Below, piece after piece: positions 1,369 to 8,611 of a stretch of DNA of 8,611 bases. The notes beneath the pieces are model-generated. The model made no database searches. It was not told where the DNA came from and worked only from the letters and a program-made list of their open reading frames with translations. Each line of letters starts with the position of its first letter. Within the stretch, counting starts at the first letter, position 1. The position numbers and the translations under genes were made by a program. Origin of the DNA: a virus (Duplodnaviria; Heunggongvirae; Uroviricota; Caudoviricetes); the IMG/VR virus record IMGVR_UViG_2563366981_000001, positions 1 to 8,611 of that record; one strand, 5' to 3'.

Positions 1369-1444
1369 GCCGATATAGCTCAGTTGGTAGAGCAGCGCAT
1401 TCGTAATGCGAAGGTCGTAGGTTCGACTCCTATTATCGGCACCA
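1369..1444 (+). tRNA. thrW: tRNA-Thr (anticodon CGU), intact, thrW-type; integration target (attL side) for the adjacent prophage
   Basis: 76-nt sequence GCCGATATAGCTCAGTTGGTAGAGCAGCGCATTCGTAATGCGAAGGTCGTAGGTTCGACTCCTATTATCGGCACCA. Acceptor stem GCCGATA/TATCGGC pairs, anticodon loop carries CGT, T-loop GGTTCGACTCC, 3' CCA encoded. thrW is the known attB of P22/Sf6-type phages. Confidence 0.95.
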
Positions 1445-1458
1445 TTTAAATCAATAAG

Positions 1459-2622
1459 TTACACATCATTAGTACCTTCCTTATTTTTTGACTGGGACAA
1501 ATTTGGGACCGATGGGTTCAGGATCGAGTCTATTTGCCGTGCGTGTTCGGTAAGGTGATTAGGTGCAAGGTGAGCATATCGACGAACCATTTCGATAGAC
1601 TCCCAGCCTCCCATTTCCTGTAACACTGACAACGGGACTCCGGCTTGAACCAGCCAACTTGCCCAGGTGTGTCTCAAGTCGTGAAATCTGAAATCATCAA
1701 TACCAGCCCGTCTCAGCGCCGCTTTCCAGGCTGTGTTTGCGTCATACCGCATCTTCCTTACTGTTGGCGCTTTCGTTCCGTCTGGTTTGGTACAGCTTTC
1801 CTTGTACACAAATACCCAACGGTGATGATTCCCGATTTGTTTTTTCAATACGCGACATGCAGTATCATTCAGCGCAACGCCAATTGCGCGGTTTGATTTA
1901 CTCTCTTCCGGGTTTATCCATGCCACCCGGCGCTGCATATCTATTTGTTGCCATTCAAGGTTGATGATGTTCGAGCGTCTTAAACCTGTTGCCAGTGCAA
2001 ATTCAACAACAGACTTTAATGGCTCCGGACATTCATCAATCAGCCTTTGTGCTTCATGGGGCTCCAGCCAGCGGATCCGTTTATTCTTTGGTTGAGGCAC
2101 TTTAATAATTGGTGCCTTATCCAGCATTTTCCATTCACGCTCTGCGGCTCTTAGTAGGGCCTTTATAAATGAAAGATGCGTAGCCTTCGTTGCAACGGAC
2201 GCTGGTTTTGGCGTGTATTCTGGAACAGGTTTCCCTTTTTTTCTGCATGCTTCTGCCCTGAGTTTCCAGTTTTCCTCATGACGCCGGTTCGTCATTTTCT
2301 GCATTGCTGAATAAATTTTTGATTCAGTAATGTCTCTTAGTTGCATTCCTGCGAAATGTTGAAGCCAGAATCCGATCCGGCTTTTGTCATCGTCCAGTGA
2401 TTTTTTATGTGCTTTCTCTTCAAGCCACCTGACACACGCTTCCTCGAACGTTATATCAGGTATTTCACCAAGTTTGCTGACCCGCCATGCTTCAGCCTTT
2501 AGCTTGTCATGGAGTTCTGTCGCCTGCCTTTTGTCCTTTGTTCCAAGAGACTGTTTAAATCTTTTACCGTTCGGCAATGTGAAACTGGCGTACCATATTT
2601 CACCTCTGCGGAAGAGTGACAT
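1459..2622 (-). CDS. int: phage tyrosine integrase (P22/Sf6-like Int)
   Basis: 387-aa ORF; stop codon 14 bp from the tRNA 3' end and convergent with it (classic tRNA-int attL arrangement). N-terminus [22 protein letters not shown] matches recalled P22 Int; C-terminal catalytic region contains [15 protein letters not shown] ... VRRYAHL (R/H-x-x-R/Y tyrosine-recombinase motifs). Confidence 0.92.
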
Positions 2623-3154: not shown

Positions 3155-3219
3155 TATGCTCCAGGGTGATGCTGCCAACTTACTGATTTAGTGTATGATG
3201 GTGTTTTTGAGGTGCTCCA

Positions 3220-3495
3220 GTGGCTTCTGTTTCTATCAGCTGTCCCTCCTGTTCAGCTACTGACGGGGTGGTGCGTAACGGCAAAAGCACCGCCGGACAT
3301 CAGCGCTATCTCTGCTCTCACTGCCGTAAAACATGGCAACTGCAGTTCACTTACACCGCTTCTCAACCCGGTACGCACCAGAAAATCATTGATATGGCCA
3401 TGAATGGCGTTGGATGCCGGGCAACAGCCCGCATTATGGGCGTTGGCCTCAACACGATTTTACGTCACTTAAAAAACTCAGGCCGCAGTCGGTAA
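3220..3495 (+). CDS. insA: IS1 InsA (transposition inhibitor / N-terminal part of InsAB')
   Basis: 91-aa ORF (GTG start) [43 protein letters not shown]... with zinc-finger Cys pattern; matches IS1 InsA. Confidence 0.95.
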
Positions 3496-3917
3496 CCTCG
3501 CGCATACAGCCGGGCAGTGACGTCATCGTCTGCGCGGAAATGGACGAACAGTGGGGCTATGTCGGGGCTAAATCGCGCCAGCGCTGGCTGTTTTACGCGT
3601 ATGACAGTCTCCGGAAGACGGTTGTTGCGCACGTATTCGGTGAACGCACTATGGCGACGCTGGGGCGTCTTATGAGCCTGCTGTCACCCTTTGACGTGGT
3701 GATATGGATGACGGATGGCTGGCCGCTGTATGAATCCCGCCTGAAGGGAAAGCTGCACGTAATCAGCAAGCGATATACGCAGCGAATTGAGCGGCATAAC
3801 CTGAATCTGAGGCAGCACCTGGCACGGCTGGGACGGAAGTCGCTGTCGTTCTCAAAATCGGTGGAGCTGCATGACAAAGTCATCGGGCATTATCTGAACA
3901 TAAAACACTATCAATAA
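3414..3917 (+). CDS. insB: IS1 InsB frame (expressed as InsAB' transposase by -1 frameshift)
   Basis: 167-aa ORF ...[28 protein letters not shown]... in the -1 frame relative to insA; the slippery TTAAAAAAC motif is present at 3469-3477 within the overlap. Confidence 0.9.
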
Positions 3918-3955
3918 GTTGGAGTCATTACCCAGGAATTGTTTCCAGAATATGA

Positions 3956-4904: not shown

Positions 4905-5404
4905 TATGCAGCCCTCACGATATAATTAAAGGCAATGTTACGAGGACGGTTTTCGTTTGCAGTTGGAACAACTCTGGAAGCATCAAATGTTACTCGCTTT
5001 GCATAACCACCTTTAATTGAATCAGATGAAGCATCTCCGATGACGCTGGTTATAAAAACGCCAGAGTCAGAAGGATAGGTATTAAACCTGACATCTACTA
5101 ATGCACCAATTATATTTCGAATGGTATCTCCCTGTGACGAAAGCAAGCTACGGTTAGTATCAATCCCTCTTCCATCATCCCAGCCACGAATAAACTCACC
5201 GCGTAAATCAGGCAATTTATTTGTCGGGTAAACCTTTGCCAGTTCCGGGTATTCTTCAGCAGAAAAAGCCGCTCCGTTGCATTTCAGCCAGCCTGTTGGC
5301 GGAGTGGCGGAAGGCCACGGAACAGGCACGCCAACGGGTAATGCCGAACCTTCTCCCAAACCAACGTTTATGAAAATGCAGAAATAACGAGCAGATGACA
5401 TCAT
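4904..5404 (-). CDS. side tail fiber protein, C-terminal variable segment (e14 StfE-like; lacks the constant N-terminal part)
   Basis: 166-aa ORF directly upstream of and coupled to tfa, with a hix/gix-like crossover site inside its first ~20 codons and an invertase gene adjacent. This is the arrangement of the Sv'/U' half of Mu G, P1 C and e14 P invertible segments. Not a stand-alone gene. Confidence 0.7.
   Translation of the reverse strand: MMSSARYFCIFINVGLGEGSALPVGVPVPWPSATPPTGWLKCNGAAFSAEEYPELAKVYPTNKLPDLRGEFIRGWDDGRGIDTNRSLLSSQGDTIRNIIGALVDVRFNTYPSDSGVFITSVIGDASSDSIKGGYAKRVTFDASRVVPTANENRPRNIAFNYIVRAA
5351..5376. promoter_or_regulatory. candidate invertase crossover site (pix/hix/gix-like 26-bp site, 12-2-12 with AA centre)
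   Basis: TTCTCCCAAACC-AA-CGTTTATGAAAA. Both half-sites fit the recalled Hin/Gin half-site pattern TTnTCnnAAACC (right half as reverse complement TTTTCATAAACG); 18/26 identities to recalled gix TTATCCAAAACCTCGGTTTACAGGAA. It sits at the 5' end of the stf variable segment, 55 bp from pin. Confidence 0.45.
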
Positions 5405-5430
5405 TCCTGCTTTTGTCAGGGAGATCTACC

Positions 5431-5985
5431 ATGCTTATTGGCTATGTACGTGTGTCAACAAATGACCAGAACACAGATCTACAACGTAATGCGCTGAACT
5501 GTGCAGGATGCGAGCTGATTTTTGAAGACAAGATAAGCGGTACAAAGTCCGAAAGGCCGGGACTGAAAAAACTGCTCAGGACATTATCGGCAGGTGACAC
5601 TCTGGTTGTCTGGAAGCTGGATCGGCTGGGGCGTAGTATGCGGCATCTGGTCATTCTGGTTGAGGAGTTGCGCGAACGTGGCGTTAATTTTCGCAGCCTG
5701 ACGGATGCTATTGATACCAGCACACCGATGGGGCGTTTTTTCTTTCATGTGATGGGGGCCCTGGCTGAAATGGAACGAGAACTGATTGTTGAACGAACAA
5801 AAGCTGGACTGGAGGCTGCTCGCGCACAGGGACGAATTGGTGGACGTCGTCCCAAACTTACACCAGAACAATGGGCGCAGGCCGGGCGATTAATTGCATC
5901 AGGCGTTCCTCGCCAGAAGGTGGCGATCATCTATGATGTTGGTATATCGACACTGTATAAGAAGTTTCCGGTCGGAGATAAATGA
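5431..5985 (+). CDS. pin: serine DNA invertase (Pin/Gin/Hin/Cin family)
   Basis: 184 aa from ATG at 5431 (AGGGAGA 7 nt upstream): MLIGYVRVSTNDQNTDLQRNAL... with catalytic Ser in the YVRVSTNDQ motif and a C-terminal HTH (GRIGGRRPKLT...VAIIYDVGISTLYKK). Near-collinear with recalled e14 PinE. The upstream ATG at 5395 is rejected as an N-terminal extension. Confidence 0.93.
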   Translation: MLIGYVRVSTNDQNTDLQRNALNCAGCELIFEDKISGTKSERPGLKKLLRTLSAGDTLVVWKLDRLGRSMRHLVILVEELRERGVNFRSLTDAIDTSTPMGRFFFHVMGALAEMERELIVERTKAGLEAARAQGRIGGRRPKLTPEQWAQAGRLIASGVPRQKVAIIYDVGISTLYKKFPVGDK

Positions 5986-6026
5986 AACCGTAGCACGTCG
6001 TATGCAAGATCGTGCTGCGGTTTATG
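5986..6026. terminator. candidate bidirectional rho-independent terminator between convergent pin and the GIY-YIG gene
   Basis: Imperfect hairpin AACCG-t-AGCACG ... CGTGCT-g-CGGTT (5986-6022) followed by TTTAT, in the 57-bp gap between the pin stop (5985) and the stop of the convergent gene (6043). Confidence 0.35.
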
Positions 6027-6042
6027 CTTATCACTTAAAGAC

Positions 6043-6912
<870 letters not shown>

Positions 6913-6991
6913 CTAAGCCTTTGAATTTACAAGTACAAAAAAGATACTTTTCCTCATAATGTGAATTAATTTTATGTTTCGTTTGATGATT

Positions 6992-7057
6992 GGACCGGTC
7001 TCGAAAACCGGAGTAGGGGCAACTCTACCGGGGGGGCAAATCCCCCTCTCTCCGCCA
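6992..7057 (+). tRNA. tRNA-Ser(CGA) 3' fragment (serU-like; anticodon stem to CCA end); pseudo-tRNA / att-site remnant, not a functional gene
   Basis: GGACCGGTCTCGAAAACCGGAGTAGGGGCAACTCTACCGGGGGGGCAAATCCCCCTCTCTCCGCCA matches the recalled 3' two-thirds of E. coli tRNA-Ser(CGA): anticodon loop CT-CGA-AA, long variable arm, acceptor 3' strand TCTCTCC + CCA. The 5' ~24 nt (acceptor 5' strand, D-arm) are absent, and the T-loop reads GGGCAAATC rather than the expected GTTCAAATC. Confidence 0.7.
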
Positions 7058-7640
7058 CTTTATCAATGACTTATCTCCCGACTTCCCGCCTTGCTTTTCC
7101 TAAACAGAACAATCGTAGAATATTCTTGAAGGGTTAGATCGTCACTGTTTTCTGTTCGATACTGTGACATTCAGCACTTGATTCGCTATGGATCTGACAG
7201 GAAGGTTTCGAGCGAAAATCTGCAGTTATTCAGTCGTTTTCTTATCGGTCACCATTATTCTTTTAGACATTGATCCTACAAAGCTGCCGCAAAGTTGGTG
7301 GTGGGAACTGAAGTTGCGTAGAGAAGGGGTCAATACCCGGAGGCAAACATGGGCTGGCAAAAGTGTAGCGGTATTAGGCGCAGCTATTTAGCCTAGTTAT
7401 GTTTTATGAAAACTTGATATCATATAAGTGTCTTACTTATTGGCTGTAAATAAGGTTTTCTAAGGAATTGTTTCTTTAGCATCATTTGTAACTGTAACGG
7501 AATTTATAATCCTTTACTTTATTTTTACGGTATTTTTTATCACACCCTATTTTTTATGTGGTTTTTTATACTAAAGTTTGGCAAAGTGAACTTTATATGC
7601 ATATACTTCATCCTGGTTTCAGTTAAATTGGGTGGATGAT

Positions 7641-8384
7641 ATGGCAACTACATGTTCAGTTATATTGATTTTGGAGTCCTTTGATGTTTATTTCGGAAAA
7701 GAGAGTGTGTTTCTGGATAGAGGTTTATCTGTACTTGTCGACTCTAGCTATAGAGATTTTTTCCTGACATATCCTGAAAGAGTGATAGTGGCGGATTTTG
7801 GCGCTGAGTTTATTAGTCGCTATTTGAAAGCTAATAACTTAAGGGATATTTCTGATTGTAGGGAATATCCATCTTATTTAAAAATAAACTTTGCTGACTT
7901 CAGTTTAATTAAAGGATTAATTAGTTGGGCTAATCACTGTGCTGAATATATAGAAATTTTTGATGAGTCTATTGCTTTTACATGTCTCTCTGCATTTTCT
8001 TCTGAAAAACAATTTGGAGTATTTCTGTTTGGATGTTTGAAAAGCACAGGGGCTAAAGTTAAAACGATTATTCATACGGATTTATCTGCACCATGGCATC
8101 TTAAGGATATATCATCAAGATTATATCTCAGCGAAAGTTTACTAAAGAGGAAATTGAAAGAAGAGGGGGTATCATTCAGTAAGATCATACTTGATGAGAG
8201 GATGCAAATGGCTGAATATTTACTCAGCACTCGTTGTTATCCTATTAGTAAAGTAGCTAAGGTCTGTGGTTATGCCAGTGTCTCATACTTTACTTATGTA
8301 TTTAGACGTTATTTTGGTGTTTCTCCAAGTCAATACTCTCAGAGGAGTTCAGAAAGTAAAATTCTTACTCACCAGGGAATCTAA
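7641..8384 (+). CDS. AraC/XylS-family transcriptional regulator (AppY/YdeO/EnvY-like)
   Basis: 247 aa from ATG at 7641 (GGTGGA 5 nt upstream; the track's GTG at 7632 is less likely). N-terminus MATTCSVILILESF parallels recalled AppY MDYVCSVVFICQSF and YdeO MSLVCSVIFIHHAF. C-terminal double HTH: ...PWHLKDISSRLYLSESLLKRKLKEEGVSFSKIILDERMQMA...CGYASVSYFTYVFRRYFGVSPSQY. The gene and its surroundings are visibly AT-rich. Confidence 0.85.
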   Translation: MATTCSVILILESFDVYFGKESVFLDRGLSVLVDSSYRDFFLTYPERVIVADFGAEFISRYLKANNLRDISDCREYPSYLKINFADFSLIKGLISWANHCAEYIEIFDESIAFTCLSAFSSEKQFGVFLFGCLKSTGAKVKTIIHTDLSAPWHLKDISSRLYLSESLLKRKLKEEGVSFSKIILDERMQMAEYLLSTRCYPISKVAKVCGYASVSYFTYVFRRYFGVSPSQYSQRSSESKILTHQGI

Positions 8385-8388
8385 TCAT

Positions 8389-8611
8389 TGTTCTTGCCCC
8401 CTTATTTCCAGACAGGGGGTGTATCTTAAGTTAACGTTACCCGCTGACGTCGATATTCTCGCGGAGAGCGATAACCCAACGCACTGTGCGGATGGTTTTC
8501 ATTGTAATGTTCGATCGCTACTGCAAGATTATGCAATGCCGTTCTTATATTCGGTTTCGGCATGAACGCGATGTAGTCTTCCTTCATCGTTTTCACGAAC
8601 CTTTCTGCCAT
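8389..8611 (-). mobile_element. IS2-group (IS3 family) insertion sequence, right end only; continues beyond the window
   Basis: Terminal sequence TTGCCCCCTTATTTCCAGACA (8395-8415) resembles the recalled IS2 right inverted repeat (TTTGCCCCTATATTTCCAGACA); a transposase C-terminus lies immediately inside. The exact terminal base (about 8386-8392) is uncertain. Confidence 0.6.
8426..8611 (-). CDS. IS3-family (IS2-group) transposase OrfB, C-terminal 61 codons (partial; N-terminus outside window)
   Basis: ...[55 protein letters not shown] closely parallels the recalled IS2 InsD C-terminus (...AESFVKTIKRDYISIMPKP...[25 protein letters not shown]), including the conserved Glu of the DDE triad in the N-x-x-AE-x-F motif. 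The ATG at the window edge is coincidental. Confidence 0.7.

Follow-up and report, generated by a model that had tools for sequence, protein, structure and literature searches.

Which event placed the 3′ part of a serine tRNA gene inside a prophage that occupies a threonine tRNA gene? The question is raised by positions 6992 to 7057 of the 8,611-nt stretch of viral DNA analyzed here in its whole length (hereafter, the window). The original prediction, made from the letters alone, took this fragment for the footprint of a second tRNA-targeting integrative element. Comparisons with complete Escherichia coli genomes, phage genomes, and viral and metagenomic contigs lead to another answer: judged by its sequence, the segment from 6992 to 7335 is a genuine serU attR with its adjoining host flank, which has been displaced and is not an active boundary. 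The kind of relic is ordinary; its history is unusual.

The 66 nt at positions 6992 to 7057 on the plus strand (GGACCGGTCTCGAAAACCGGAGTAGGGGCAACTCTACCGGGGGGGCAAATCCCCCTCTCTCCGCCA) correspond to the 3′-terminal 66 nt of the serU gene (90 nt) for tRNA-Ser(CGA), from the anticodon stem to CCA, with 64 of the 66 positions identical to serU of strains BL21 and MB15. Both the collinearity and the coordinates had been read correctly. The two mismatches, a change of TT to GG at 7035-7036 in the T-loop that had likewise been spotted, are the only differences, and they break the conserved T54-Psi55-C56 motif (GTTC in DNA). Alignment found no counterpart of serU positions 1 to 24, i.e., the 5′ acceptor strand and the D-arm, upstream of 6992, again as first noticed. 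ARAGORN called no tRNA at 6992 to 7057, its sole call in the window being thrW (1369 to 1444), and the Rfam tRNA model left the fragment unmatched, so that the tRNA callers bore out the original reading. With its incomplete cloverleaf, the fragment does not qualify as a functional tRNA-Ser. Folding of the RNA around it was not better than that of shuffled sequence (z = −0.26). A hidden complete tRNA was rejected on the grounds that neither program made a call, the 5′ half is missing, and the fold score is that of shuffled sequence; chance similarity was rejected because the 64/66 identity is followed by 278 nt of contiguous serU flank. Two Rfam matches on the minus strand, Plastid-psbI-rps4 at 7003 to 7054 (far below the gathering score) and Plastid-ycf2 at 1369 to 1442 (subthreshold), name plastid untranslated region families; we read them as antisense resemblance to tRNA genes rather than as independent features.

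The copied segment extends well beyond the 66 nt first noticed. It is a block of 344 nt (6992 to 7335), in which the tRNA fragment is followed by the 278 nt of the native spacer between serU and yodB (7058 to 7335, plus strand; 97 to 99% identity to the tRNA-Ser locus), confirming that material from a serU locus lies next to thrW. As a query (query positions 33 to 376), the block matched the annotated tRNA-Ser locus with 97 to 99% identity in 5,406 of the 5,426 complete E. coli genomes. Aligned to the native locus, the homology stops sharply at GGGGTCAATA|CCCGGAGG (7335|7336). Within the spacer, position 7280 is A in all 34 tabulated copies that carry the cassette beyond this junction, versus G in the native copies examined. 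On the K-12 map, the window copy corresponds to a position about 1.8 Mb from serU, thrW having plus-strand and serU minus-strand orientation. A direct-repeat partner of the fragment was expected if it derives from integration. None was found within the window; the partner is serU itself, and the equivalent fragment of strain MB15, described below, does form a perfect 68-nt repeat.

The origin of the left side became clear from a chimeric query composed of the left arm of the window, the core, the flank, and the native continuation toward yodB. This query was found complete in E. coli MB15 and RMDEC332 (98.3% identity over 1,036 nt) and at 87% coverage in three further genomes. In MB15, serU is occupied by a complete prophage of about 39 kb. 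The order at this locus runs from mtfA and serU through three cargo genes, int, a xis-like gene, and lambdoid early and lysis genes; it continues with an HK97-type head, a myovirus tail and baseplate, tail fibers, pinE, the GIY-YIG gene, the serU fragment, and yodB. The attL and attR sites of this prophage share a 68-nt perfect direct repeat (GGACC...GCCACT), which equals window positions 6992 to 7059; beyond it, phage DNA follows at attL and the native spacer at attR. The window shows the same succession toward its fragment. A pin-type DNA invertase gene of a tail-fiber switch (5395 to 5985, plus strand; Pfam Resolvase and HTH_7), annotated as pinE in the loci L002 and L008 and with an orthologue start in RefSeq annotations about 36 nt downstream of 5395, is followed by a LEM-3-like GIY-YIG gene (6043 to 6816, minus strand; Pfam PF22945), the last phage gene before attR, which has the same place at the end of the MB15 serU prophage and of thrW prophages. 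The spacer between the start of the GIY-YIG gene and the core (6868 to 6991, plus strand) abuts the serU fragment at the attR of MB15 and RMDEC332 and represents the phage (P) arm. At the 3′ end of pin, a partial Rfam match to CssrB (Shigella sRNA B) at 5963 to 6019 scored 32 bits against a gathering threshold of 76 and covered the terminal stem-loop only; it is probably a terminator-like hairpin.

All three parts of an attR are thus recognizable in the window: a left arm that is phage DNA of a bona fide attR at serU, a core consisting of the 3′ part of the target tRNA gene (64/66), and a right arm (7058 to 7335) that is the chromosomal flank of the target, i.e., the bacterial (B′) arm. The original prediction considered it undecidable which side had been the element. 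Given the attR layout of MB15 and RMDEC332, sequence homology places the phage on the left, with pin and GIY-YIG, and the bacterial arm on the right. The wider notion that integration into a tRNA gene, with crossover near the anticodon arm, yielded an attR-type product is likewise supported. Position tells a different story, for the site lies neither at the end of its element nor opposite an attL at serU, a cognate integrase is missing, and the enclosing element is bounded by thrW repeats. We call the site a displaced attR because it conforms to the sequence definition, core and both arms, and departs from the positional one.

The enclosing element is a prophage remnant at thrW. Past proA (1 to 1254), thrW (tRNA-Thr CGT; 1369 to 1444, plus strand), recognized by ARAGORN and Rfam, forms its attL, and the adjoining tyrosine integrase gene (1459 to 2622, minus strand; Pfam Phage_integrase) encodes the integrase of the resident prophage. 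Small early-region open reading frames (ORFs) separate the integrase gene from an IS1 copy (3165 to 3932, plus strand) that has an exact left end (3165 to 3187), InsA and InsB ORFs, and a right end that was read. This IS1 sits between the early region (int, xis) and the tail-fiber genes; fragments of tail-fiber and tail-fiber assembly genes follow it, and then pin. Scaffold KB732702.1 of the E. coli assembly GCA_000351525.1 contains the window with 100% identity. There, the 3′ ∼47 nt of thrW recur with 46/47 identity at about 8873 to 8919 in window coordinates (with an exact 40-mer from 8880), ∼260 nt past the window end, and the pao genes come next. The remnant from thrW to this repeat spans 7.5 kb and holds the integrase gene, IS1, tail-fiber remnants, pin, the GIY-YIG gene, the serU block, an AraC-family gene, and an IS3 fragment, so that the serU fragment is internal, about 1.8 kb from the right end. 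A similar thrW-repeat geometry delimits a full lambdoid prophage in strain 2EC1 (L001) and the prophage of O157:H7 strain FRIK944 (L002); relatives retain full lambdoid or myovirus-tailed prophages at this site, compared with the 7.5-kb remnant here. In FRIK944 (L002, 14539 to 15929), a P4-like integrase gene and a satellite element directly follow the thrW repeat that closes the first prophage, a repeat that appears to have served as the target of a second, tandem integration.

These bounds bear on the reading with which the analysis began, namely, that a second, tRNA-Ser-targeting element inserted in situ and left the fragment as its local attL or attR boundary remnant. The fragment does have the shape of an att remnant, it parts two compositionally different regions, and the left arms of the copies compared below differ exactly at the core. 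However, the locus has neither a serU 5′ half nor an attB, serU-yodB spacer (278 nt) rather than local DNA makes up the right flank, and the fragment is internal to a prophage bounded by thrW. The resident integrase adjoining thrW, the only one present, is of a different type: it matches the integrase of the MB15 serU prophage with 31% identity over just 58 amino acids. By this match, the two enzymes are unrelated beyond the family level, and the type of enzyme that made the serU junction is therefore not encoded in the window. We therefore regard insertion in situ as extremely improbable, and the second element of the original prediction has to be given up. Its proposed boundary between the pin/GIY-YIG module and the AraC island is half right: phage DNA on the left does meet nonphage DNA on the right, but this is not the end of a local element, and the AraC cassette is a separate unit that begins 278 nt further to the right.

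At that point, the serU flank runs straight into a truncated IS630-family element, of which the terminal ∼56 nt are left (7336 to 7391, plus strand), consisting of the final codons (...PFPGGKHGLAKV), the stop codon, and the terminal repeat. Citrobacter amalonaticus, Yokenella regensburgei, Entomohabitans teleogrylli, and Intestinirhabdus alba share an exact 30-mer with this segment. The Citrobacter copy, part of an intact element, is located at the 3′ end of a 343-amino-acid transposase gene, with ∼56 nt alignable, and the encoded protein scored 254.7 bits against the NCBIfam IS630 transposase model; in the other three genera, the sequence flanking the 30-mer aligns through the 3′ end of the Citrobacter transposase gene. 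Since the serU flank here meets the interior of a truncated insertion sequence, the 7335|7336 join resembles an illegitimate or insertion sequence-associated event and not an integrase product. Comparison with native MB15-type sequence around window positions 7326 to 7346 places the cassette junction at the center of a palindrome, TCAATAATTGA, with the break after TCAATA.

The cassette itself contains an AT-rich AraC-family regulator gene (7641 to 8384, plus strand; Pfam HTH_AraC and HTH_18; GC content, 32 to 36%), a phage cargo bracketed by the IS630 remnant and a C-terminal fragment of an IS3-family (IS2-like) transposase gene. The latter (8426 to 8611, minus strand; Pfam rve_3, NCBIfam IS2 TnpB and IS3) runs off the window and is annotated as incomplete in both 2EC1 and FRIK944. 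The cluster names of the AraC protein offer a generic annotation only. The thrW prophage of O157:H7, OI-8 (CP-933H), shows the GIY-YIG gene, serU fragment, AraC gene, and IS remnant in the same order at ∼99% identity, and patE (z0321), an AraC-like regulator of acid resistance, is placed on OI-8 of strain EDL933 by a review (PMC10877973). Because the O157:H7 thrW prophage carries the AraC gene and OI-8 carries patE, the gene in the window is probably a patE orthologue, an assignment by shared location. Scanning of positions 6850 to 7700 for promoters and terminators found nothing in the serU-derived part; the one promoter-like site (7578 to 7607) falls inside the cassette. The serU block lacks signs of present function and, we infer, is an inert passenger.

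The block is not confined to prophages at thrW. Window positions 6996 to 7600 matched the complete genome records of the phages PhiR70_1, ev099, and mEp332 with 97.5 to 98% identity, and in all three the block sits between a tail-fiber assembly gene and the same AraC gene with its IS remnants. K-12 and E. coli C are the hosts listed for mEp332 and PhiR70_1. In ev099, the canonical lambda core (GCTTTTTTATACTAA) lies 2,055 nt after the junction and directly before lambda-type int and xis, which means that the serU fragment is not the working attachment site of this phage. The packaged genomes of ev099, mEp332, and PhiR70_1 thus contain a hybrid att site with contiguous host DNA, as is characteristic of specialized transducing phages. 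In GPEC1209, a prophage of this type at the bio side of the lambda site has the AraC cassette, but an IS1 occupies the place expected for the serU block. Among IMG/VR sequences, a scan for the 7335|7336 junction retrieved 28 viral contigs, and those with enough downstream sequence showed the thrW core at +1552 to +1554 or at +1818. Block and cassette together occur in ∼540 of the 5,426 complete E. coli genomes, ∼410 of these ∼540 with the left arm of the window. The presence of one and the same block in free phages, and of the AraC cassette at the lambda site as well, is a further argument against an element inserted in situ at thrW. Pattern searches retrieved no intact serU followed by the cassette from any of the 5,426 complete E. 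coli genomes or from the GTDB representative genomes, and native DNA to the right of the island was not found in the cassette-bearing loci. Literature searches located no description of the serU-derived block; the regulator has been described, not the block upstream of it.

Comparison of the copies points to a single origin of the captured block. All 34 cassette copies have the 7335|7336 junction and the derived base 7280A in common, and it is this combination of one junction and one derived base that argues for one capture. Three left arms nevertheless adjoin the one block: that of the window (class A), a close variant of it (class A′), and class B, a lambdoid serU phage arm that is also present at the true attR of O166:H15 strain JNE070796 and in the 'phage SerU-LTIIb' record (KU052038), whose annotation lists the fragment as a tRNA-Ser pseudogene beside yodB. 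Class A copies with TT at 7035-7036 have no other derived base in the block and, on this account, stand nearest to the ancestral state. This suggests that it was the pin/GIY-YIG phage that made the capture and that the other arms were gained later.

The T-loop substitution noticed in the original prediction turned out to be a derived polymorphism of one sublineage, not a property of the att site. TT is the state of native serU, of the true attR of MB15, of all class A′ copies, of four class A cassette copies, and of class B except for one copy. GG is restricted to a subset of class A, i.e., 13 copies, that of the window included, which are otherwise identical across the block. Intermediate GT was found on a class A arm (strain 41, L010) and on a class B arm (L032). 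With TT in native serU, in the MB15 attR, and in cassette copies of all three classes, GG is the derived state of one sublineage of a nonfunctional copy and a later mutation. Position 7035 appears to have mutated from T to G on more than one occasion, independently on two different left arms, and in the lineage of the window the second T changed afterward. Both steps extend a run of G (from G5 to G6 to G7), a pattern more suggestive of a mutational hot spot than of selection.

Three metagenome contigs, L011, L012, and L013, matched a pattern combining the serU 5′ half with the cassette junction; they fit a purely phage-borne history imperfectly and are not decisive. L011 and L012, from human gut metagenomes, join an intact serU via the 344-nt block to the AraC cassette. 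L011, assembled at 1.76-fold coverage, leads from mtfA-serU through the cassette into a thrW repeat and DNA of the pao side, an arrangement identical to that of the thrW locus in strain 41; either chimeric assembly across the 344-nt repeat or genuine serU/thrW recombination would explain it. L012 stops in an IS3 copy and is uninformative. The contig less easily set aside is L013 (OGIC01004537.1), a native serU locus with native-type flank alleles that contains exactly 40 nt of the IS630 remnant (window positions 7336 to 7375) at this same junction; the DNA to either side is native. None of the 5,426 complete E. coli genomes carries this 40-nt allele. L013 could be what remains of a chromosomal insertion predating the capture or a conversion tract derived from a cassette in the same cell.

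A chromosomal inversion or translocation between serU and thrW prophages, with no phage-borne intermediate, would account for contigs in which intact serU leads into the cassette, above all for L011 with its continuation into thrW-locus DNA, and the fragment at thrW and native serU would form long inverted homologies in the K-12 orientations. Yet just 278 nt of serU flank are present and the yodB-side chromosome is absent, no complete genome has the rearranged configuration, and the block resides in complete genomes of phages with K-12 or E. coli C as hosts as well as in lambda-site prophages. We give such a rearrangement hardly any credence. More weight, although still little, falls on a chromosome-first order of events, in which an IS-bracketed island (IS630, AraC, IS3) was inserted 278 nt downstream of serU and a neighboring serU prophage then took up attR, flank, and island together. 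L013 speaks for it, with its 40 nt of IS630 remnant at the same junction of a native serU locus and native DNA beyond; the right-hand join of this contig shares few bases, and an assembly artifact there is unlikely. On the other side, L013 is a single short contig that gene conversion within one cell could also have produced, both the 40-nt insert and an intact serU with the cassette number 0 among the 5,426 complete E. coli genomes, and no cassette-bearing locus has native DNA to the right of the island. On balance, a chromosome-first origin seems unlikely to us.

We consider it probable, with good though not full confidence, that the displaced attR was captured at serU by aberrant excision or recombination and then spread by the exchange of phage modules. 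According to this reading, a temperate phage resembling e14 and SfV, with a myovirus tail and with pin and GIY-YIG at its right end, would first have integrated into serU, a step documented by the homology to the MB15 prophage. Integrase-mediated recombination at the 68-bp core would have created the succession of phage arm, serU 3′ part, and serU downstream DNA. An illegitimate event would then have brought attR and 278 nt of adjoining host DNA into the phage genome, either through aberrant excision of the lambda-bio type or through recombination involving an insertion sequence, with the breakpoint inside the IS630-family element; the captured block would thereby have come to lie beside the AraC (PatE-type) cargo gene, immediately before the phage attachment site. 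The distribution of the copies suggests that the integration module was subsequently replaced by thrW-type and lambda-type modules, an exchange that would have left the block just inside the right end of thrW prophages (the window and OI-8) and of lambda-site prophages and also in free lambda-type phages. Integration at thrW would have been followed by decay of the prophage, including the insertion of IS1 and the loss of most genes, as its present state attests. The fragment would meanwhile have decayed neutrally, with TT changing to GG in the direction that the comparison of copies indicates.

The join between host and phage DNA lies inside a truncated IS630 end, which agrees with an illegitimate join. 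Other observations sit uneasily with capture by excision. An integrase of different specificity is present. Classical lambda-bio excision would remove the integrase side, but all of these phages keep integrases, so that at least one further module replacement must be assumed; likewise, the three left arms (A, A′, and B) on one block call for later exchange of arms. The contigs with intact serU, in particular L013, with the junction in a native locus, could mean that the junction predates excision and arose in a chromosome. One extension of the proposed history would be that the displaced attR is still a live substrate and, when provided with a serU-type Int and Xis, recombines with a serU attL or an incoming attP. 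Arm swaps at the core could then explain why A, A′, and B adjoin the same block, and contigs in which intact serU leads into the cassette would be in keeping with an occasional inversion of ∼1.8 Mb between serU and thrW. In that case, captured att sites would be portable crossover points that drive phage mosaicism. We regard present activity of the site as rather doubtful.

The nearest precedents for a captured attR of this kind are the specialized transducing phages lambda-bio and lambda-gal, whose genomes contain a hybrid att site and contiguous host DNA from beside the integration site. The serU block resembles them in the combination of hybrid att and adjacent host DNA and in its location at the b-region end, beside the att/int module. 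It differs in that the captured host DNA is 278 nt long and contains no gene, that the breakpoint lies in an insertion sequence remnant, that these phages still have a functional integrase module of another specificity (thrW or lambda type), and that the block is fixed in a widespread natural lineage instead of being a rare laboratory product. The serU attR sites of 'phage SerU-LTIIb' and MB15 have the same core and bacterial arm, and that of MB15 also has the same phage arm (pin, GIY-YIG). Those sites, however, lie at serU beside yodB with an attL partner on the element, whereas in the window copy the flank ends after 278 nt and no partner attL exists in its prophage. Cryptic prophages of K-12 carry pseudo-tRNA att remnants as well, such as the thrW-derived repeat of CP4-6 and the argW-derived repeat of CPS-53/KplE1. 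Like these, the fragment studied here is a nonfunctional 3′ tRNA repeat left by integration and free to decay; unlike them, it does not sit at the boundary of its own element in its own tRNA locus but has moved to another prophage at another tRNA locus.

The finding leaves general principles unchanged. It does mean that a pseudo-tRNA fragment near a tRNA integration hotspot need not mark the boundary of a local element, and programs that call genomic-island or prophage boundaries from tRNA-fragment repeats would divide the thrW prophage wrongly at this point, that of O157:H7 (OI-8) included. The AraC gene, probably that of a PatE-type regulator of acid resistance, is hereby placed in a cassette bracketed by IS remnants that travels with the serU block. 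The block itself preserves, in naturally fixed form, host DNA taken up from next to an attachment site and can be followed across phages of the serU, thrW, and lambda sites.
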